Sequence record: OR062527 | From: Escherichia phage vB_EcoM_11B_SA_NWU | Strand: one strand, 5' to 3' | Length of the DNA: 64,000 nucleotides | Part shown: piece after piece, positions 2,364-37,890 of the stretch | How positions within the stretch are numbered: position 1 is the stretch's first letter | How the letters are laid out: every line of letters begins with the position of its first letter | Position numbers and translations under genes: made by a program | The notes under the pieces: model-generated | What the model was told of the DNA's origin: nothing | Databases searched by the model: none | Seen by the model: the letters and a program-made list of their open reading frames with translations, nothing else

Positions 2364-2957
2364 TTATTTCAGAGAATTAATATATTCCTGAACATCGGCA
2401 GAGGTAGTTTCAACCCCAGAAATATTACCATTAAAGGTTTCAACTCGAGCAAGAGTATCTTCAATATCAACCTTAGTCAGTGCTGCAATTTCAACTACAT
2501 CATCAGCAGTACTAATTCCAAGGGCATTCGCGGCGCGAGTTTCACGAATATATTCCAATTTAACTGCAAGTTCTTGGCGAGCATCATCTAACTCAACTAC
2601 TTTCTTGGCAATTTCAATTCGCATTTCAGCATAACCATCAGCTTTAGTAGTCAACTGCTCAGCTGTTCGACGATATAGTAAACCGAGTTTAGCATGCATT
2701 GTTACATCTTGACCTTCAGAAAGAAGCTTGCGAATTTCGCGCTCTTTTGATTCGGCCTGCTTATTCTTTTCGACAATAAGTTCACGAATACGCTTTTCTT
2801 CGTTAATAGATTTAATGGAAGCAGTTTTTAGGTCTTTAATCTTATCAAGTAGTTTTGCTGCTGCAGCAGTATACTGTTCTTCAACAGATAGATTTTTAGC
2901 CATAGCAGAACCAAGTTTAGTGCGAATAAACTCAACAATTTTCTTCAGTGTGTTCAT
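2364..2957 (-). CDS. coiled-coil protein 197 aa, function unknown
   Basis: heptad-rich helical sequence; SD AAGGAAAT before ATG; early promoter and stem-loop upstream. Confidence 0.6.
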
Positions 2958-3029
2958 AGTATTTCCTTAGGTTAATTAAGATTTAAAATCTGTGAGAGTA
3001 TTAGTATTATACTCTATCCTCAAGTTATA

Positions 3030-3064
3030 GGCTCATAATATCTCAATCATGAGCCTATGTAAAC
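3030..3064 (-). promoter_or_regulatory. early promoter GTTTAC-18-TATTAT overlapped by stem-loop (PeSL-like)
   Basis: -35 GTTTAC, 18-nt spacer, -10 TATTAT; inverted repeat AGGCTCAT/ATGAGCCT. Confidence 0.55.
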
Positions 3065-3340
3065 TTATTTCATATTATTGAAATATTCTTCTGCAATTTC
3101 GTCGTTATCATGATAAACTTTAGAAGACAGTTTAACATAACCTTCAGCAGTGAACATGTTAATCACAACCTTTACAGTATACCACTGACCGTCTTCATTA
3201 CCCATTACTGCATAAGTTTCAAACATCGGATGATCAGGACCGATAACTTTAATATCATTCACTGTACGACCAAAATCTTCTGAAACACATTTCATAAAGA
3301 AGTTGAACAGTTCGCCGTAATTATCCATTTCATTCTCCAA
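3065..3340 (-). CDS. hypothetical protein 91 aa
   Basis: ORF preceded by early promoter GTTTAC-18-TACTAT and SD GGAGAA. Confidence 0.55.
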   Translation of the reverse strand: MENEMDNYGELFNFFMKCVSEDFGRTVNDIKVIGPDHPMFETYAVMGNEDGQWYTVKVVINMFTAEGYVKLSSKVYHDNDEIAEEYFNNMK

Positions 3341-3365
3341 GTTGTTTTCTGTATCAGTAGTTGAT

Positions 3366-3401
3366 AGTTGTATAGTACCACGGAAGAACAGGGATGTAAA
3401 C
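3366..3401 (-). promoter_or_regulatory. early promoter GTTTAC-18-TACTAT
   Basis: shares flanks TTCACAAA..GTTTACAT and CTATCAACTACTGA with copy at 7478. Confidence 0.55.
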
Positions 3402-3532
3402 AGTTTTGTGAAAAAATTTTTAAAAATTTTTAGGAAATTCTAGGGCAGGGAGGGGCAATTAAAAGATAGGATAATATATTATAAAGGGTAGAAACTAAAT
3501 GATGCCTAGAGAGGCCCGGAAAGGCCTAGATA

Positions 3533-3561
3533 CCAAAAAGCCCCAACCTTTTGGTCGGGGC
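3533..3561 (-). terminator. intrinsic terminator hairpin, copy A (downstream of CTS-protein gene)
   Basis: 9-bp GC stem GCCCCGACC/GGUUGGGGC, 4-nt loop, U-run. Confidence 0.7.
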
Positions 3562-3569
3562 TAAGAATG

Positions 3570-4043
3570 TTATTTGATTTGTTTAGCAGACCAAATGCGG
3601 TCTTTAATAATTTTTTGGATGTCTTCAACATACTCAAGAGAGTGAACATGTGGATTATCTTTGAAACTATAAGCACGGGCTAACTTTTGGCCTTCGGTTT
3701 TGATTACTAAAAGCTCTTTAAGGATAGCTTCATATTTAGAGATAATTCCTTTAACGATATTTTTTTCTTGTGCAGCTTTAGGATCTGCTTTAGGAGCAGG
3801 TTTACCCGAAGCCTTTGCAAAAGCAGCGCCAGTAGCAACTAAACTTTTCCAGGCCATACTAACTGCATTTCCCGTAAATCCTTCTGCTTTCATGTCGCGA
3901 GCAAATTGGAATCGTGATTCGTCAGAAGCATCTTTATAGGAATATTTACCCGCTGCAATGGCTGCTTTTGCAACAGCTTGAATTTCGGTGCTAGATGCTT
4001 CATTTAACACCGCTTCATTTAAAAATTGAGCATATGATTTCAT
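3570..4043 (-). CDS. internal-protein-like capsid-targeted protein, 157 aa (ORF-track N-terminal extension to 4208 rejected)
   Basis: N-terminus MKSYAQFLNE-AVLNE resembles T4 internal-protein CTS with LxE protease sites; Ala/Lys-rich basic body; SD AGGAAATAAG; late promoter TATAAATA upstream. Confidence 0.6.
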   Translation of the reverse strand: MKSYAQFLNEAVLNEASSTEIQAVAKAAIAAGKYSYKDASDESRFQFARDMKAEGFTGNAVSMAWKSLVATGAAFAKASGKPAPKADPKAAQEKNIVKGIISKYEAILKELLVIKTEGQKLARAYSFKDNPHVHSLEYVEDIQKIIKDRIWSAKQIK

Positions 4044-4083
4044 CTTATTTCCTGTTTTAATTCGTGGATTTAATATACTACTA

Positions 4084-4091
4084 TATTTATA
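4084..4091 (-). promoter_or_regulatory. late promoter TATAAATA for CTS-protein gene
   Basis: exact TATAAATA on minus strand 41 nt upstream of ATG. Confidence 0.55.
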
Positions 4092-4120
4092 CCAAAAAGC
4101 CCCAACCTTTCGGTCGGGGC
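4092..4120 (-). terminator. intrinsic terminator hairpin, copy B (near-identical to copy A)
   Basis: same stem, GAAA loop, U-run; 35 of 36 nt identical to copy A. Confidence 0.7.
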
Positions 4121-4164
4121 TAAGCCTTGCGGCAACCTTGTCGGGGTTCCACCTGCTAAGGCAA

Positions 4165-4330
4165 GTGTTTGTACGAAACGCCGGGATTCGAACCCGGTTA
4201 TCAAGCAATTGACGCTACTCAATATTTTTAAAAGGCCATATCTCGACCATATCCGAACGTTCCGTCAAAAACGCTACTCGGCTTACGGCAAAGATATTTC
4301 CTCGAATCGATAATTCGGTGCGCCGTTTCT
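4165..4330 (-). ncRNA. tRNA-like stable RNA(s), T4 species 1/2 RNA-like
   Basis: T-arm GGTTCGAATCC and acceptor-like 3' end but too long for one canonical tRNA; internal repeat GAGUAGCGU. Confidence 0.35.
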
Positions 4331-4432
4331 GCTGTGATATAAGGGGGCATTAACAAAACATAAAGATTTATTAATGCCAGTCCTTAAACAGGGAACATCA
4401 GTCCGACGACTTACCGGTAGCGACCCGGTTTC

Positions 4433-4783
4433 TTAATATTCTTTTAAAGCATCAATTTGTTCACGGCGTAAACGCCATAAATCAATTGCTTCATAAGCAG
4501 ATTCAACATTTCGAATTAGCCGACATTTATGTAAAGACTTATGATTTTGATATTGTGTAGATAACGGAATTTTATCTAAAAGGTCTTTACGTTCAAAGTA
4601 TTCGTAACCATCTAAGCCAAATGAACGATTTTTGAGAAATTGCCAATGACCAAATTCGTTTTCGACATAAACATAATCTGCATGCTGATAAAGCAAATTA
4701 ATTACACGTTCAGAAATAACAGTATCATTATGATTAAAATAGAATGTTAAATCATGAACTACTAAATAAACATTACCTTTCAT
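4433..4783 (-). CDS. hypothetical protein 116 aa inside tRNA region
   Basis: ORF with SD GAGGAAAA; starts right after tRNA-Arg 3' end. Confidence 0.5.
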   Translation of the reverse strand: MKGNVYLVVHDLTFYFNHNDTVISERVINLLYQHADYVYVENEFGHWQFLKNRSFGLDGYEYFERKDLLDKIPLSTQYQNHKSLHKCRLIRNVESAYEAIDLWRLRREQIDALKEY

Positions 4784-4801
4784 ATTTTCCTCACTTATAA
4801 T

Positions 4802-4877
4802 TGGTCGAGGCAGTAGGGATCGAACCTACGACCCAGGACTTAGAAGGTCCTTGCTCTTCCTTCTGAGCTATGCCCCG
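4802..4877 (-). tRNA. tRNA-Arg (anticodon UCU)
   Basis: manual fold: 7-bp acceptor, D and T arms, anticodon loop CUUCUAA, encoded CCA. Confidence 0.8.
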
Positions 4878-4880
4878 TAA

Positions 4881-5531
4881 TTAAAATTTCATTTTTCGAC
4901 CTTTAAACCATCCTTCTGGAATTGGGTCAGTTTTCTTAATACGTTTAGAAACTTTTTCATCTAATGAATGAATCCACATGGTTCCAAACTGAGAATTGTA
5001 TTTTCCAGAAGAATTAATCTTGGCTGAATCAGATATTTTCTTTTTCGTTTCTTTGTTATGTAGTTTACCTAAAAATCCAAAAGTTGGTTTTCTTATTCCA
5101 TTTTCCCATTGAATTTTCATAGATTCAGAAACTTTTTGCGATACCTTCGAATAGTCTCTTCTTAAGTTAGATTCTCTTACTCCAGATGAACAAATTGATG
5201 CAAAATTTGGACTATTACAAATATGATCCCAACCGCCTTCGCCACCAATCTTAAGATTATAAACGTTGCCTTTTAAAAATTCTTCTGTTACAATTTCAAG
5301 CTCTTTTGCGTACATTTCTTTAGCAGAAGAAAATTCATACAAAATTTCTTTTGTGAAATTATTTATTCCATACTTAGCAATTGCTCTTTTTATTCTTTTA
5401 CCAGAACCCATATAACCATCATTTATATTAGATGTTTTATGAGCTCCAACATAAACAGTTCCATTGATTAAATTAGTTATTTTATAAATCAGATAATGCA
5501 TATCTCCTCCATAGTTGAGATTATTATACAT
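4881..5531 (-). CDS. segB: GIY-YIG homing endonuclease (SegB-like)
   Basis: N-terminal HYLIYKITNLINGTVYVGAHK...DGYMGSG GIY-YIG module; embedded in tRNA cluster as in T4. Confidence 0.75.
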   Translation of the reverse strand: MYNNLNYGGDMHYLIYKITNLINGTVYVGAHKTSNINDGYMGSGKRIKRAIAKYGINNFTKEILYEFSSAKEMYAKELEIVTEEFLKGNVYNLKIGGEGGWDHICNSPNFASICSSGVRESNLRRDYSKVSQKVSESMKIQWENGIRKPTFGFLGKLHNKETKKKISDSAKINSSGKYNSQFGTMWIHSLDEKVSKRIKKTDPIPEGWFKGRKMKF

Positions 5532-5558
5532 TATTCCATTCCAATTGTAAACAAAAAA

Positions 5559-5631
5559 GGTGACCGATGGGAGTTGAACCCATGACTACGAGAATCACAA
5601 TCTCGAGTTCTACCAACTGAACTACGGCCAC
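5559..5631 (-). tRNA. tRNA-His (anticodon GUG), no encoded CCA
   Basis: manual fold: acceptor GUGGCCG/CGGUCAC, anticodon loop UUGUGAU, T-loop UUCAACU; non-canonical -1 position. Confidence 0.6.
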
Positions 5632-5745
5632 ATTAATACCTACTCCAACAATCAAGATGTCTTCACACGAAATTAAGAGAAGAGTGATCAGTTCAACCCC
5701 TATAATCGCGTCAAGTAGATATTAATGTGACAGTTGTCACAAATT

Positions 5746-5820
5746 TGGCGGACGTGATAGGATTCGAACCTATAACCAATCGCTTAACAGGCGATCGCTC
5801 TGCCATTGAGCTACACATCC
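5746..5820 (-). tRNA. tRNA-Asn (anticodon GUU)
   Basis: manual fold: acceptor GGAUGUG/CACGUCC, anticodon loop CUGUUAA, CCA encoded. Confidence 0.75.
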
Positions 5821-5824
5821 AAAT

Positions 5825-5911
5825 TGGTGGGGAGTGATGGAGTCGAACCACCCGAGTCGTAATGACAATGAATTTACAGTCCACACCGCTACCTCTACGG
5901 GATAACTCCCC
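5825..5911 (-). tRNA. tRNA-Tyr (anticodon GUA), long variable arm
   Basis: acceptor GGGGAGU/ACUCCCC, anticodon loop CUGUAAA, 87 nt type II. Confidence 0.7.
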
Positions 5912-5920
5912 AAATTAATT

Positions 5921-5995
5921 TGGTGGCCCTGGGTGGAATTGAACCACCATCTGGCGATTATGAGTCGCTTGCTTGAACCTTCCAGCTACAGGGCC
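5921..5995 (-). tRNA. tRNA-Met or Ile2 (anticodon CAU)
   Basis: acceptor GGCCCUG/CAGGGCC, anticodon loop CUCAUAA, CCA encoded. Confidence 0.7.
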
Positions 5996-5996
5996 T

Positions 5997-6072
5997 TGGT
6001 GCTGATTGACGGAATCGAACCGCCGACATCCTCATTACAAGTGAGGTGCTCTACCTACTGAGCTAAATCAGC
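5997..6072 (-). tRNA. tRNA-Thr (anticodon UGU)
   Basis: acceptor GCUGAUU/AAUCAGC, anticodon loop CUUGUAA. Confidence 0.8.
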
Positions 6073-6077
6073 AAAAC

Positions 6078-6167
6078 TGGCGGAGGCGATAGGATTCGAA
6101 CCTATGAGTCGCCGGAGCGACTGCCGGTTTTCAAGACCGGTGCATTCAACCACTCTGCCACGCCTCC
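6078..6167 (-). tRNA. tRNA-Ser (anticodon UGA), type II
   Basis: acceptor GGAGGCG/CGCCUCC, anticodon loop CUUGAAA, long variable arm. Confidence 0.8.
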
Positions 6168-6169
6168 AG

Positions 6170-6243
6170 TCTCCATACAAGGATTTGAACCTTGGACCTC
6201 CTGATCCCAAATCAGGCGCTCTACCAAACTGAGCTACACGGAG
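6170..6243 (-). tRNA. tRNA-Pro (anticodon UGG), no encoded CCA
   Basis: acceptor CUCCGUG/UAUGGAG, anticodon loop UUUGGGA; abuts tRNA-Ser. Confidence 0.75.
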
Positions 6244-6253
6244 TAAATTAAAT

Positions 6254-6327
<74 letters not shown>

Positions 6328-6332
6328 AAATT

Positions 6333-6419
6333 TGGTGCGAGAAGTGGGACTCGAACCCACAAGGAAATCATTCCGCAGCATTTTAAGTGCTGTGCCTTTA
6401 CCAATTTGACCATTCTCGC
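6333..6419 (-). tRNA. tRNA-Leu (anticodon UAA), type II
   Basis: acceptor GCGAGAA/UUCUCGC, anticodon loop CUUAAAA. Confidence 0.8.
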
Positions 6420-6420
6420 G

Positions 6421-6493
6421 CTGGGAATAAAGGATTCGAACCTTTGCATCCTGGAATCAAAATCCAGTGCCTTACCAACTTGGCTAATTCCCA
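6421..6493 (-). tRNA. tRNA-Gln (anticodon UUG), no encoded CCA
   Basis: acceptor UGGGAAU/AUUCCCA, anticodon loop UUUUGAU. Confidence 0.75.
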
Positions 6494-6590
6494 ATTATTA
6501 ACAAAGGCTCTTTAGCAAGAACCCTTGATGATAGAGGGTATTAATCAGTGCGGTATGAGTTAATAATAACAAATAATTCTTAAAGCATAT

Positions 6591-6878
6591 TTACCATTTA
6601 TGATAATACATATTTACGATGCATTCAAGGCCCAAAGGATTCCTGAAAATATCATATTCAAGAGGACCTTTTTCTGTTTCAATAAAGAAATCAAAATTTA
6701 CTGTATTAAATTTACGGTCTTCCTTCACTAATTTAACTTGAGAAGATGAACGGTCAACATAAACCTTTTCAACTTCAAAACATGTTAAAACGCCATAATC
6801 ATCAATCAAGGCTTTAGCCGCGTCTTGATCATATTTATATCCATTTTCAATGGACGATACTTTAGCATAAAGAATCAT
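6591..6878 (-). CDS. hypothetical protein 95 aa (hypervariable locus between tRNAs and 57B)
   Basis: ORF in operon with two upstream small ORFs; no recognisable motif. Confidence 0.5.
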   Translation of the reverse strand: MILYAKVSSIENGYKYDQDAAKALIDDYGVLTCFEVEKVYVDRSSSQVKLVKEDRKFNTVNFDFFIETEKGPLEYDIFRNPLGLECIVNMYYHKW

Positions 6879-6881
6879 TAT

Positions 6882-7271
6882 TTACCCTTCATCAACAATA
6901 GTATGAGTGTGGGCATTTACAATTTGCCACCAATCAAAGCGATTAGAACCATACATCGGTTTGTTTTCATTTTCTTTGATAATATCACGAAGTTCATCTT
7001 CAGTAGCGGCTTTCGCGATTAAATCAGCATATCCACCACGAGGATAATAATTATCACCTGCAAAAAGTAAAAAGTTTGGTTTAATGTTATTGAACTCTTC
7101 AAGAGTAATAACTGTTCCACCAGGTTGAACAATCTCTACATATTTATATCCTAATTTTTGAGCAGCATCTACTGCTTCAAGCAGGGTATCATGAGCCCAT
7201 CCAATTTGGCAATCTGGCTTTTCAGATGGATTAGCCTGATAATCCGCGTACACTTTATACATTCTATTCAC
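6882..7271 (-). CDS. hypothetical protein 129 aa
   Basis: ORF, start overlaps stop of upstream 61-aa ORF. Confidence 0.5.
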   Translation of the reverse strand: MNRMYKVYADYQANPSEKPDCQIGWAHDTLLEAVDAAQKLGYKYVEIVQPGGTVITLEEFNNIKPNFLLFAGDNYYPRGGYADLIAKAATEDELRDIIKENENKPMYGSNRFDWWQIVNAHTHTIVDEG

Positions 7272-7449
7272 CTTTAGAAATTTTATCCATAACGATAGCG
7301 ATTAAACCAATTAAAAATGCTACTACAAGTGAAAAAACATTTTCTGCTGTAGTTAATAATCCGCATATAAATCCAACAAACATTGAAAAACTAAAAGCGG
7401 AAGCAGAAATTGCAATAGCAACATTTCGAATTAATTCACAGCGTTTCAT
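7264..7449 (-). CDS. small hydrophobic membrane protein 61 aa
   Basis: two hydrophobic helices; SD GAGGAGAA; early promoter GTTTAC-18-TACTAT upstream. Confidence 0.5.
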   Translation of the reverse strand: MKRCELIRNVAIAISASAFSFSMFVGFICGLLTTAENVFSLVVAFLIGLIAIVMDKISKGE

Positions 7450-7477
7450 TTTATTCTCCTCAGTAGTTGATAGGGTA

Positions 7478-7507
7478 ATAGTATCACAACTAAAACCCTA
7501 TGTAAAC
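7478..7507 (-). promoter_or_regulatory. early promoter GTTTAC-18-TACTAT with stem-loop TAGGGT/ACCCTA
   Basis: sigma70-like hexamers; conserved flanks. Confidence 0.55.
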
Positions 7508-7519
7508 AACTTTGTGAAA

Positions 7520-8216
<697 letters not shown>

Positions 8217-35987: not shown

Positions 35988-36412
35988 TGATTCTAATCCC
36001 TGAAACTCATGAATTAGTTCTCGAGAATGTCGAAGCACTTATTCCTGAAGCACAGGGTCGCTTTGACGAGTTGTCTTCTGCTTTAAATAAAGACGATATA
36101 AATACAATTATCGAGAATATGCTTGATGATGAAACCGATTTAGCGATTGCATTAGCTTCTATTAATGAAAATATGCCGTTAAATGAATTCATCGTTAAAC
36201 ATGTTTCTGCCCGTGGTGAAATTACTCGCACTAAAGATCGCAAAACCCGCGAACGTAATGCATTTCAAACTACCGGGTTGTCTAAAGCAAAACGTAGACA
36301 AATTGCTCGTAAAGCTACCAAAACGAAGATTGCCAATCCAGCAGGTCAATCTCGTGCTCAGCGTAAGCGTAAAAAAGCTCTCAAACGCCGTAAAGCATTA
36401 GGATTAAGCTAA
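35987..36412 (+). CDS. 68: prohead core protein gp68
   Basis: 141 aa basic C-terminus, synteny. Confidence 0.7.
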
Positions 36413-37050
36413 TGAATGAACCCCAATTGCTAATTGAAACTTGGGGTCAACCTGGCGAAATTATTGATGGTGTACCAATGCTTGAATCTCACGATGGGAA
36501 AGACTTAGGTTTAAAACCTGGTTTATACATCGAAGGAATATTCATGCAAGCAGAAGTCGTCAATAGAAATAAACGTCTTTATCCAAAACGTATATTAGAA
36601 AAAGCGGTAAAAGACTATATTAATGAGCAAGTTTTAACTAAACAAGCTCTCGGAGAATTAAATCATCCTCCACGCGCTAATGTTGACCCGATGCAAGCCG
36701 CTATCATTATAGAAGATATGTGGTGGAAAGGAAATGACGTATACGGACGAGCTCGTGTTATTGAAGGTGACCATGGTCCTGGAGATAAATTAGCAGCTAA
36801 TATTCGTGCCGGATGGATTCCAGGAGTTTCTTCTCGTGGATTAGGTTCATTGACTGACACAAATAAAGGTTATCGTATCGTAAACGAAGGATTCAAATTA
36901 ACTGTAGGTGTTGATGCAGTATGGGGTCCAAGTGCTCCAGATGCATGGGTAACTCCTAAGGAAATTACTGAATCACAGACGGCGGAAGCCGATACAAGTG
37001 CCGATGACGCCTATATGGCTCTCGCAGAGGCCATGAAAAAAGCGTTATAA
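36412..37050 (+). CDS. 21: prohead protease gp21
   Basis: 212 aa, synteny between 68 and 22. Confidence 0.85.
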   Translation: MNEPQLLIETWGQPGEIIDGVPMLESHDGKDLGLKPGLYIEGIFMQAEVVNRNKRLYPKRILEKAVKDYINEQVLTKQALGELNHPPRANVDPMQAAIIIEDMWWKGNDVYGRARVIEGDHGPGDKLAANIRAGWIPGVSSRGLGSLTDTNKGYRIVNEGFKLTVGVDAVWGPSAPDAWVTPKEITESQTAEADTSADDAYMALAEAMKKAL

Positions 37051-37080: not shown

Positions 37081-37890
37081 ATGCTTAAAGAACAACTGAT
37101 TGCTGAAGCGCAGAAAATTGATGCTTCCGTTGCTCTTGATAGTATTTTCGAATCAGTTAATATTTCTCCGGAAGCAAAAGAAACTTTCGGCACTGTATTC
37201 GAAGCTACCGTCAAGCAGCACGCCGTTAAATTAGCTGAATCTCATATCGCTAAAATTGCTGAAAAAGCAGAAGAAGAAGTAGAAAAAAATAAAGAAGAAG
37301 CAGAAGAAAAAGCTGAGAAGAAAATCGCTGAGCAAGCTTCTAAATTCCTTGACCATCTTGCGAAAGAATGGCTCACTGAAAATAAATTGGCAGTAGATAA
37401 AGGCATTAAAGCCGAACTGTTTGAATCCATGCTTGGCGGATTGAAAGAGCTCTTCGTTGAACACAACGTTGTTGTTCCAGAAGAATCAGTTGATGTTGTA
37501 GCTGAAATGGAAGAAGAACTGCAAGAACATAAAGAAGAATCAGCTCGTCTGTTCGAAGAACTCAATAAGCGTGACGCATATATCAATTATGTGCAGCGTG
37601 AAGTGGCATTGAGCGAAAGTACTAAAGATCTGACTGAGTCTCAAAAAGAAAAAGTCTCTGCTCTGGTCGAAGGTATTGATTATTCAGATGCATTCTCAAG
37701 CAAATTGAGTGCCATCGTAGAAATGGTGAAGAAATCTAATAAAGATGAAAGCACTATTACTGAGAGTATAAATACTCCTGATACTGAAGCAGCCGGACTG
37801 AATTTCGTCACTGAAGCTGTAGAAGATAAATCTGCACAAGGTGCAGAAGATATTGTAAGTGTATATGCGAAAGTCGCATCTCGTTTCTAA
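37081..37890 (+). CDS. 22: prohead scaffold core protein gp22
   Basis: 269 aa acidic helical scaffold-like. Confidence 0.8.
   Translation: MLKEQLIAEAQKIDASVALDSIFESVNISPEAKETFGTVFEATVKQHAVKLAESHIAKIAEKAEEEVEKNKEEAEEKAEKKIAEQASKFLDHLAKEWLTENKLAVDKGIKAELFESMLGGLKELFVEHNVVVPEESVDVVAEMEEELQEHKEESARLFEELNKRDAYINYVQREVALSESTKDLTESQKEKVSALVEGIDYSDAFSSKLSAIVEMVKKSNKDESTITESINTPDTEAAGLNFVTEAVEDKSAQGAEDIVSVYAKVASRF

Follow-up and report, generated by a model that had tools for sequence, protein, structure and literature searches.

Between the rnaC and e.8 genes of Escherichia phage vB_EcoM_11B_SA_NWU (sequence record OR062527), we identified a minus-strand gene of 157 amino acids that probably encodes a previously unnamed internal protein (Ip) of T-even phages. 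The gene lies within a stretch of 64,000 nucleotides (nt), hereafter the window, that is part of a Tequatrovirus (T4-like) genome. This identification draws on an N-terminus of the kind that directs Ips into the capsid, on the listing of an ortholog among the proteins of purified virions, on a small, basic and lysine-rich mature sequence, and on a terminator-bounded locus at which the gene is present in some phages and precisely missing from close relatives. As defined by sequence, the rnaC-e.8 interval is a third Ip locus, beside denV-e and trna.4-57B.

The protein begins MKSYAQFLNEAVLNEASS, and its N-terminus can be divided as MKSYAQFLNE/AVLNE/A, where each slash follows an L-x-E motif. The first ten residues resemble the capsid targeting sequence (CTS) of T4 IPII and IPIII, both of which start MKTYQEFIAE, and similar decapeptides head Ip4 (MKTYQEFITE), Ip5 (MKT[YF]KEFAT[EK]), the PST IpVI type (MKTFKEFIAE), Ip7 (MKTFKEFINE) and Ip9 (MKTYQEFISE). 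The review PMC9026906, in its account of Mullaney & Black 1996, states that residues 1-10 of IPIII are enough for packaging, that residues 4 and 7 are the main determinants of targeting, and that processing relies on residues 8 and 10. All four of these critical positions are kept in the window protein, namely Tyr4 and Phe7 for targeting and Leu8 and Glu10 for processing, which agrees with an earlier note, made from the sequence alone, that had called this N-terminus close to the T4 CTS. The two L-x-E sites that the same note had pointed out are also present (L8-N9-E10 and L13-N14-E15), the second of them with a glutamate that is invariant in alignment A2, and one further site lies internally (L108-K109-E110). 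Codons 7-11 and 12-16 (FLNEA/VLNEA, 4025-3996) look as if the cleavage motif had been duplicated in tandem as a 15-nt unit, a duplication that is not present in the Mosigvirus and SP21535 orthologs.

We scanned all six frames for the pattern M[KLE][TSEK][YF]x[EQ]F heading an open reading frame (ORF) of at least 40 amino acids, and found that the studied gene was the only match in the window. Across the T-even genomes scanned, the motif was confined to annotated Ips, to a second CTS gene in the rnaC-e.8 locus of phage ime09, and to the studied gene. An aromatic residue at position 4 and a Phe at position 7 are kept throughout the family. Its distant members, which begin MLKFNEFLAE, MINFSDFLNE, MKSFSSFLNE or MISFNEFVDGNLITE, also have Leu or Val at position 8 and the Glu of the cleavage site. 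As the CTS is kept in these distant members at low identity, the propeptide is under a constraint of its own. By every available sequence criterion, then, the N-terminus is a CTS-type propeptide. The gene could instead specify a late protein of the ordinary cytoplasmic kind, left unpackaged, whose resemblance to a CTS is coincidental or vestigial; the database names of the family, all of which are 'hypothetical', and the unspecific proteome described below would suit such a protein. We regard this as very improbable given that the motif is unique in the window, that the four functionally defined positions are all kept, that the motif otherwise heads only annotated Ips and the second CTS gene of the locus in the genomes examined, and that the propeptide persists in relatives whose mature parts have strongly diverged or been replaced.

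Virion association of an ortholog is taken from the literature. In the Yersinia phage fD1, the ortholog g140 (98% identical) is listed as particle-associated ('PPAP') from an LC-MS/MS analysis of purified virions, in a dataset in which approximately 40-49% of fD1 proteins are so listed. The Ip4-type g129 and IpI-type g146 proteins of fD1 are likewise particle-associated, and g139, the homologue of the neighbouring e.8, is not. The earlier note had named absence from virions as one finding that would speak against an internal protein, and the listing of g140, albeit of low specificity, points the other way. The window encodes both the gp21 prohead protease and the gp22 scaffolding core protein, which are the machinery expected of phages with internal proteins (Table 1).

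In composition the 157-residue protein is rich in alanine (17.2%) and lysine (13.4%) and has an isoelectric point (pI) of 9.46, in keeping with the Ala/Lys-rich, basic body that had been noted previously. The predicted mature form of 142-147 residues, with a pI of 9.5-9.6 and 20 lysines, is small, basic and lysine-rich, as Ips are. T-even Ips have only the CTS in common (PMC3012670). BLASTP found no similarity to T4 IPII or IPIII past the propeptide, and PST IpIV/Ip4, compared by inspection, proved unrelated, though coincidentally it is also 157 amino acids long. The mature protein represents a distinct and narrow family, unrelated to the named Ips compared. The earlier note had not decided between an equivalent of IPI and an additional internal protein; the lack of likeness of the mature part, together with the different locus, marks it as an additional protein and not the equivalent of IPI, IPII or IPIII.

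The window protein is 100% identical to proteins of IME339 and AR1 and falls into phrog_2280, which is annotated as 'unknown function', while every named Ip tested in PHROGs carries an internal virion or head protein label. Using tblastn, the family was found in 511 phage records, including therapeutic and biocontrol isolates infecting O157, Shigella, Salmonella and Yersinia, always at one locus and as a single copy per genome. The family comprises 14 clusters at 90% identity, and an exhaustive hidden Markov model (HMM) search of 1.84 billion proteins recovered 13 representatives or clusters. Among these 1.84 billion representatives no cellular homologue was identified by the HMM search, and the genomic contexts checked were T4-type phage loci. 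A Pfam scan of the window protein returned no family above threshold, and a sequence profile search against the Protein Data Bank (PDB) returned nothing. An AlphaFold2 model (predicted local distance difference test score 76) consists entirely of helices, arranged in two domains with a PAPKADPKAAQ linker between them. In Foldseek comparison with the PDB and BFVD libraries, the only matches were orthologs of the protein and generic helical structures, so that its function cannot be read from its fold.

The ratio of non-synonymous to synonymous substitution (dN/dS) against orthologs is 0.04-0.19; the gene is under purifying selection and is a real gene. Non-synonymous divergence (dN) is unevenly spread, at 0.20-0.27 for the N-terminal domain (residues 16-78) versus 0.04 for the C-terminal helical hairpin, such that the former evolves approximately 5-fold faster. 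In Klebsiella and Yersinia relatives the N-terminal domain is kept and the C-terminal half is different. Two family members show irregularities. In the Klebsiella phage KpV477 (Jiaodavirus), codon 78 of the ortholog (locus positions 2497-3030) is followed by an in-frame TAA, at which the annotation is split; the ortholog of KP01 (177 amino acids) is intact, whereas that of KpV477 is a pseudogene or reflects a sequencing error. A chimeric metagenomic ORF of 94 amino acids has a trna.3-like N-terminus fused in frame to the C-terminal 32 residues of the 157-residue protein, with the joint at ...IKEN/PHAHSLEY..., which implies deletion of trna.2, the entire tRNA cluster, rnaC and rnaD, and most of the studied gene.

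These properties bear on what a packaged product might do. It could have a physical role, such as neutralisation of DNA charge or assistance with packaging or ejection, in which it would be interchangeable with other Ips for total load. Its pI of 9.5 and 13% lysine would suit this, as would solid-state nuclear magnetic resonance data in which lysines of internal proteins contact DNA phosphates (PMC3012670) and a C-terminal half that is near-invariant across genera (dN 0.04), unlike that of a pure arms-race protein. Within the sample examined, IME339, fD1, RB32 and ime09 have the gene without IpIII and T4 and PST have IpIII without the gene; however, T2 and T6 have neither, so compensation is not strict. 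The faster non-synonymous evolution of the N-terminal domain also argues against a physical role, as does the precedent of T4, in which all three Ips of known function are specific GmrSD inhibitors. We consider this explanation unlikely, and it is the chief alternative to an anti-defence function. The type IV restriction enzymes inhibited by Ip1, Ip2 and Ip3 of T4 are all of the GmrSD family and differ from one Ip to the next (PMC12373910). By analogy with these proteins, an anti-defence function is our best guess for the window protein should it be packaged, one that we hold at a little under even chances; the fast-evolving N-terminal domain is compatible with a role in target recognition. 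No likeness to a characterised GmrSD inhibitor was found by BLASTP against IPII and IPIII or by Foldseek against the PDB and BFVD.

The gene is set in a compact arrangement of predicted transcription signals (Table 1). A repeat search identified two direct copies of a 36-nt sequence with a start-to-start spacing of 559 nt, whose single mismatch lies in the hairpin loop; the 64 kb contained no third copy, and shuffling the sequence 100 times yielded none. The earlier note had described a duplicated 35-nt terminator, of which the duplication and the loop mismatch stand, and the length and coordinates are revised here to 36 nt at 3530-3565 and 4089-4124. Both copies form a hairpin with a 10-bp stem and a 4-nt loop followed by a T-run. 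With this GC-rich stem-loop, a U-tract and a stem that is kept in relatives, we class both as intrinsic (Rho-independent) terminators. The upstream copy is the predicted terminator of the tRNA/rnaD/rnaC transcription unit, and the same hairpin follows rnaC in T4, T2, T6 and PST.

A predicted T4-type late promoter, TATAAATA, follows the upstream T-run and overlaps the repeat by three bases (TAT), with which the promoter begins and the repeat ends. The motif occurs 24 times in the window versus 9.6 +/- 3.1 times in shuffles, indicating that the motif class is enriched, and its position relative to the start codon and its conservation at orthologous loci fit a T4 late promoter. The exact TATAAATA and the upstream hairpin are present in all 12 Tequatrovirus-type copies (11 loci and the window), as is the downstream hairpin, whose stem in HMD-9 has undergone a compensatory CCCT/AGGG change. 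In Mosigvirus the late promoter reads AATAAATA, and in Jiaodavirus and Muldoonvirus it reads TATAAATA. A scan of IMG/VR for the terminator retrieved only 5 loci, all of the same locus type. The flanking repeat was already known, since the GenBank record of RB32 describes the ortholog ORF133c as 'flanked by 34 bp imperfect direct repeat' with a hypothetical product, and the arrangement is not a new kind of system. The gene's own promoter and good Shine-Dalgarno sequence, the terminator abutting the promoter and the overall reading as an insulated late cassette had all been proposed in the earlier note, and each was borne out; 2 nt lie between T-run and promoter. We predict that the unit is a monocistronic cassette of terminator, late promoter, gene and terminator, a structure kept in every Tequatrovirus copy examined.

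In T4, a single hairpin follows rnaC and leads directly into the sequence that follows the second repeat copy in the window (GGTAT/CTAAGCCTTTCC...). T2, T6 and PST are arranged as T4, with one repeat unit and the gene missing, exactly 559 bp, and in all four of these empty alleles the rnaC flank is joined to the e.8 flank without a base lost or gained. A search with the empty junction of T4 matched 719 records, of which a spread sample of 60 was inspected. These included alleles with no gene, one gene or two genes (empty, +559 bp, and with a further insertion), the single-cassette allele being the commonest. In ime09 and OE5505, the further insertion is a second gene of 187 amino acids with the CTS start MKTYAEFLTE/AAK, which is joined inside the GGGCTTTTT segment of the terminator and has its own hairpin at its end. 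The proteins of 187 and 157 residues both match PHROG 2280 over their full length, but direct profile comparison by hhalign, at a probability of only 28%, did not confirm their homology. This second CTS gene, annotated as 'RB69ORF149c', lies directly downstream of the 157-amino-acid gene in ime09 (locus positions 562-1125), OE5505 and HMD-9 (locus positions 1300-1863).

Beyond Tequatrovirus, the Mosigvirus ortholog lies between two near-identical hairpins that both carry a TT variant (CCCCTTCC), where both Tequatrovirus copies carry GA; the sharing of one variant within a genome points to concerted evolution or repeated exchange. In Jiaodavirus, Cronobacter Muldoonvirus and a metagenomic relative, the order of terminator, late promoter, CTS gene, terminator and early promoter recurs after the tRNA genes, with unrelated hairpins. 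The Cronobacter phage vB_Cdu_VP8 (Muldoonvirus; locus positions 3786-4510) has two overlapping (ATGA) CTS genes of 72 (MKSFTEFLTE) and 169 (MKSFSSFLNE) amino acids, the shorter of which comes before the family member; the two share one terminator/TATAAATA late unit that follows the tRNA genes. Tandem internal-protein candidates thus occur at the locus in a distant T4-like genus too.

The presence of the family at this locus in Mosigvirus, Jiaodavirus, Muldoonvirus and Tequatrovirus suggests that it is an old resident there. The state of T2, T4, T6 and PST is most simply explained by deletion through recombination between the terminator repeats, and the reverse reaction may lead to gain. Insertion was considered as the direction of the event and judged less likely than deletion, as the family occupies this locus in several related T4-like genera. 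The suggestion in the earlier note that the repeats are a trace of recombination therefore holds in so far as the presence/absence polymorphism is precise, and not in the direction of insertion that it implied, loss from T2, T4 and T6 being likelier. The similarity of the two terminators could alternatively reflect functional constraint or gene conversion with no part in gene gain or loss, the T2/T4/T6 state being ancestral or the product of an unrelated illegitimate deletion. That the Jiaodavirus and Muldoonvirus orthologs lie between two different hairpins, such that duplication is not needed for the architecture, speaks for this alternative, as does the concerted evolution within genomes suggested by the paired TT and GA variants. 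Its difficulty is that repeat identity is not confined to the stem and takes in flanks without structure (TTAG... and ...GGTAT), that the empty alleles of four independent phages join exactly at one repeat unit, that in ime09 and OE5505 the second gene is also joined inside the GGGCTTTTT segment, and that comparable repeats of other T4-type cassettes recombine into mini-circles (PMC2839356). We judge it improbable, and prefer recombination between the repeats.

Several points weigh against the identification of the gene as an internal protein. The fD1 proteome lists 113-137 of 277 phage proteins as particle-associated, including DenV, NudE and the deoxynucleoside monophosphate (dNMP) kinase, and hundreds of host proteins were scored likewise, so that its specificity is low and the listing of g140 lends weak support. 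Those who annotated RB32 labelled Ip4, Ip5, Ip7 and Ip9, yet kept the ortholog of the studied gene 'hypothetical'. Its regulation also differs from that of the classical ip genes: no TATAAATA was found within approximately 90 nt upstream of the T4 ipI, ipII and ipIII, Ip5, PST IpVI-type, Ip7 and Ip9 genes, and the upstream regions of ipI, ipII, ipIII, Ip5 and the PST IpVI type have sigma-70-like TTTACA...TACTAT promoters. The Ip4-type copy of IME339 also has a late promoter. Among the searches made, there was no sequence or fold likeness to a characterised Ip or anti-defence protein, and the constant position and copy number of the gene give no sign of the cassette moving to new sites. Finally, we infer the cleavage, packaging and injection of the window protein from its sequence.

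Taken together, the following course of events is proposed. Transcription of the tRNA/rnaD/rnaC unit would end at the hairpin at 4121-4098, and a gp55-type late promoter 2 nt downstream would drive a monocistronic late mRNA ending at the second hairpin copy. The N-terminal decapeptide MKSYAQFLNE would then direct the protein to the prohead's gp22 scaffolding core, where the gp21 protease would cut after Glu10 and/or Glu15 and leave a lysine-rich, all-helical, two-domain protein of 142-147 residues (pI ~9.5) with the DNA inside the head. The mature protein would be injected together with the DNA, and its likeliest job, by analogy with Ip1, Ip2 and Ip3, would be to neutralise a nuclease-type host defence on entry. 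At the DNA level, the 36-nt terminator repeats would act as substrates for homologous recombination, with excision yielding the one-terminator 'empty' allele of T2, T4, T6 and PST, and the reverse reaction, or exchange via the flanks, yielding occupied alleles with one or two genes.

Table 1. Positions of the gene, its cassette and related features in the window.
Feature	Position	Strand	Evidence or remark
Direct repeat copy 1, 36 nt, TTAGCCCCGACCGAAAGGTTGGGGCTTTTTGGTAT	4089-4124	-	Repeat search
Direct repeat copy 2, matching copy 1 at 35/36 positions	3530-3565	-	Repeat search
Predicted upstream terminator hairpin, AGCCCCGACC-GAAA-GGTTGGGGCT, T-run 4094-4097	4098-4121	-	-21.6 kcal/mol, z -3.8
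Predicted downstream terminator hairpin, AGCCCCGACC-AAAA-GGTTGGGGCT, T-run 3535-3538	3539-3562	-	-19.7 kcal/mol, z -4.3
Predicted T4-type late promoter, TATAAATA	4084-4091	-	Begins 2 nt past upstream T-run
Shine-Dalgarno sequence, AGGAAA	4048-4053	-	4 nt before ATG at 4043-4041
Coding sequence, putative internal protein, 157 amino acids, stop codon included, PHROG 2280	3570-4043	-	ORF and PHROGs
Predicted capsid-targeting propeptide, codons 1-15, MKSYAQFLNE/AVLNE/, two L-x-E motifs	3999-4043	-	Sequence
rnaC (species 1 RNA), last gene of upstream unit	4172-4310, approximate	-	RB68 annotation transferred; T4
Sigma-70-like early promoter of e.8, TTTACA-N17-TACTAT	3372-3400	-	Identical sequence in T4
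gp21 prohead protease	36412-37050	+	Peptidase_S77, E 1.5e-111
gp22 scaffolding core protein	37081-37890	+	T4_CASP, E 3e-90

Phage records resembling the window numbered 772, nearly all from coliphages and their relatives, and those inspected were all T4-like and mostly Tequatrovirus; the closest were ESh16, IME339, AR1 and RB51/RB68, at approximately 97% identity. T4 gene order is kept around the cassette (nudE, e.2-e.6, e.8, the studied gene, rnaC, rnaD, the tRNA cluster and a segB-like gene) and further on (trna.2-trna.4, 57B, 57A, and genes 1, 3, 2 and 4), and likewise in the baseplate and head genes, including gp20-gp24. The early promoter of e.8, with which the transcription unit following the cassette begins, lies approximately 130 nt past the second hairpin. 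On the other side of the cassette, rnaC was placed from RB68, in which it occupies 4873-5011 of the extracted locus (offset 701). An Rfam scan of positions 3000-7000 matched tRNAs only, with no match for rnaC, rnaD or the cassette. The rnaC and rnaD genes (species 1 and species 2 RNAs of T4; 4172-4435, as placed by the RB68 and T4 annotations) were Rfam-negative even at E values up to 1, and these RNAs seemingly have no Rfam family.

Adjoining genes show further variation. The classical ipI locus is vacant in the window, with approximately 70 nt (7449-7520) between trna.4 (7264-7449) and 57B (7520-7975), leaving the studied gene as the sole CTS-bearing gene in the 64 kb; elsewhere this locus holds ipI (T4), Ip7, Ip9 and Ip5 (RB32), or IpVI and IpV (PST). 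Gene 57B matches the Pfam family Acb1, an anti-CBASS (cyclic oligonucleotide-based antiphage signalling system) phosphodiesterase, with an E value of 2.6e-60, which places a known counter-defence gene a few kb from the putative Ip cassette. Also vacant is the e.7 slot, a second indel hot spot that adjoins the cassette, in which 107 nt (2958-3064) with a 13-nt inverted repeat at 3027-3058 separate e.6 (2364-2957) from e.8 (3065-3340). This slot is filled elsewhere by e.7 (336 nt) in T4, a 519-nt gene in RB68 and RB32, a 399-nt gene in IME339 and ime09, and a 177-nt ORF in fD1, PST and T2. Within the RNA gene region, an ORF of 116 amino acids (PHROG 3355, 'RB69ORF150c'; 4433-4783) that T4 is without lies between rnaD and tRNA-Arg, and a GIY-YIG-type segB-like gene of 216 amino acids (4881-5531) lies between tRNA-Arg and tRNA-His, segB of T4 being elsewhere in the tRNA cluster.

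Our literature search returned nothing under the ORF names or the peptide, and Petrov 2010 is silent on internal proteins. Recognition of the gene as a probable, unnamed member of the T-even internal-protein class is likely to be new, as none of the annotations seen calls it an internal protein, and several hundred 'hypothetical protein' annotations would be corrected. Apart from internal proteins, no phage effectors are to our knowledge in place at the moment of DNA entry into the cell. The family occurs in phages infecting O157, Shigella, Salmonella and Yersinia, and the models T2, T4 and T6 do not have it; if the product is an effector, literature based on these phages could not have revealed the host system that it targets. 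The locus would further provide a second, well-delimited case of gene gain and loss mediated by regulatory motifs in T4-type genomes. More speculatively, and with less confidence than in an anti-defence function as such, PHROG 2280 may represent a new class of injected anti-defence effectors with an N-terminal target-recognition module, and the rnaC-e.8 interval a third terminator-delimited exchange site for CTS genes (none, one or two), in which late-promoter/stem-loop motifs serve as recombination joints. The interest of the finding lies mainly in its testability.

Compared with known systems, the window protein shares with T4 IPII and IPIII a 10-residue propeptide of the MK[ST][YF]x[EQ]F[LI]xE type, with an L/I-x-E gp21 site at its end. 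Like T-even Ips in general, it is small, basic, lysine-rich and non-essential, with presence/absence polymorphism among close relatives, and direct-repeat flanks have a parallel in the 43-bp repeat that the RB32 record gives around Ip7 and Ip9. It departs from these Ips in having a terminator and a canonical late promoter upstream in place of a sigma-70-like promoter and in its doubled cleavage motif, and from IPII and IPIII in being missing from T2, T4 and T6 and in belonging to a PHROG without an internal-protein label. The polymorphic Ip4-Ip13 series of T-even phages was reportedly described by Repoila and colleagues in 1994.

The cassette itself is reminiscent of promoter-early stem-loop (PeSL) elements, which mediate modular shuffling in T4-type genomes (Arbiol et al. 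2010, PMC2839356; Comeau et al. 2014, PMC4122927). As with PeSLs, two copies of a composite terminator/promoter motif bracket a small ORF, and a close relative has one copy and no ORF, a layout compatible with mini-circle excision and integration. The promoter fused to the stem-loop is late (TATAAATA) where that of PeSLs is early, and only the stem-loop and 3 nt of the promoter are repeated. Because the promoter adjoining the stem-loop is late and the nearest early-type promoter lies well past the second hairpin, the cassette falls outside the definition of a PeSL, of which it may be a late-gene counterpart.

With regard to function, the closest precedents are the GmrSD inhibitors IPI*, Ip2 and Ip3. 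IPI* has a compact beta-sheet fold with helices at its flanks (PMC3012670), whereas the window protein is modelled as all-helical with two domains, and the two have neither homology nor a shared fold. What the window protein has in common with IPI*, Ip2 and Ip3 is an accessory status tied to host range and a predicted delivery by way of a CTS, packaging and co-injection with glucosyl-hydroxymethylcytosine DNA. Bair and colleagues reportedly described IPI* in 2007 as an injected inhibitor of GmrSD type IV restriction.

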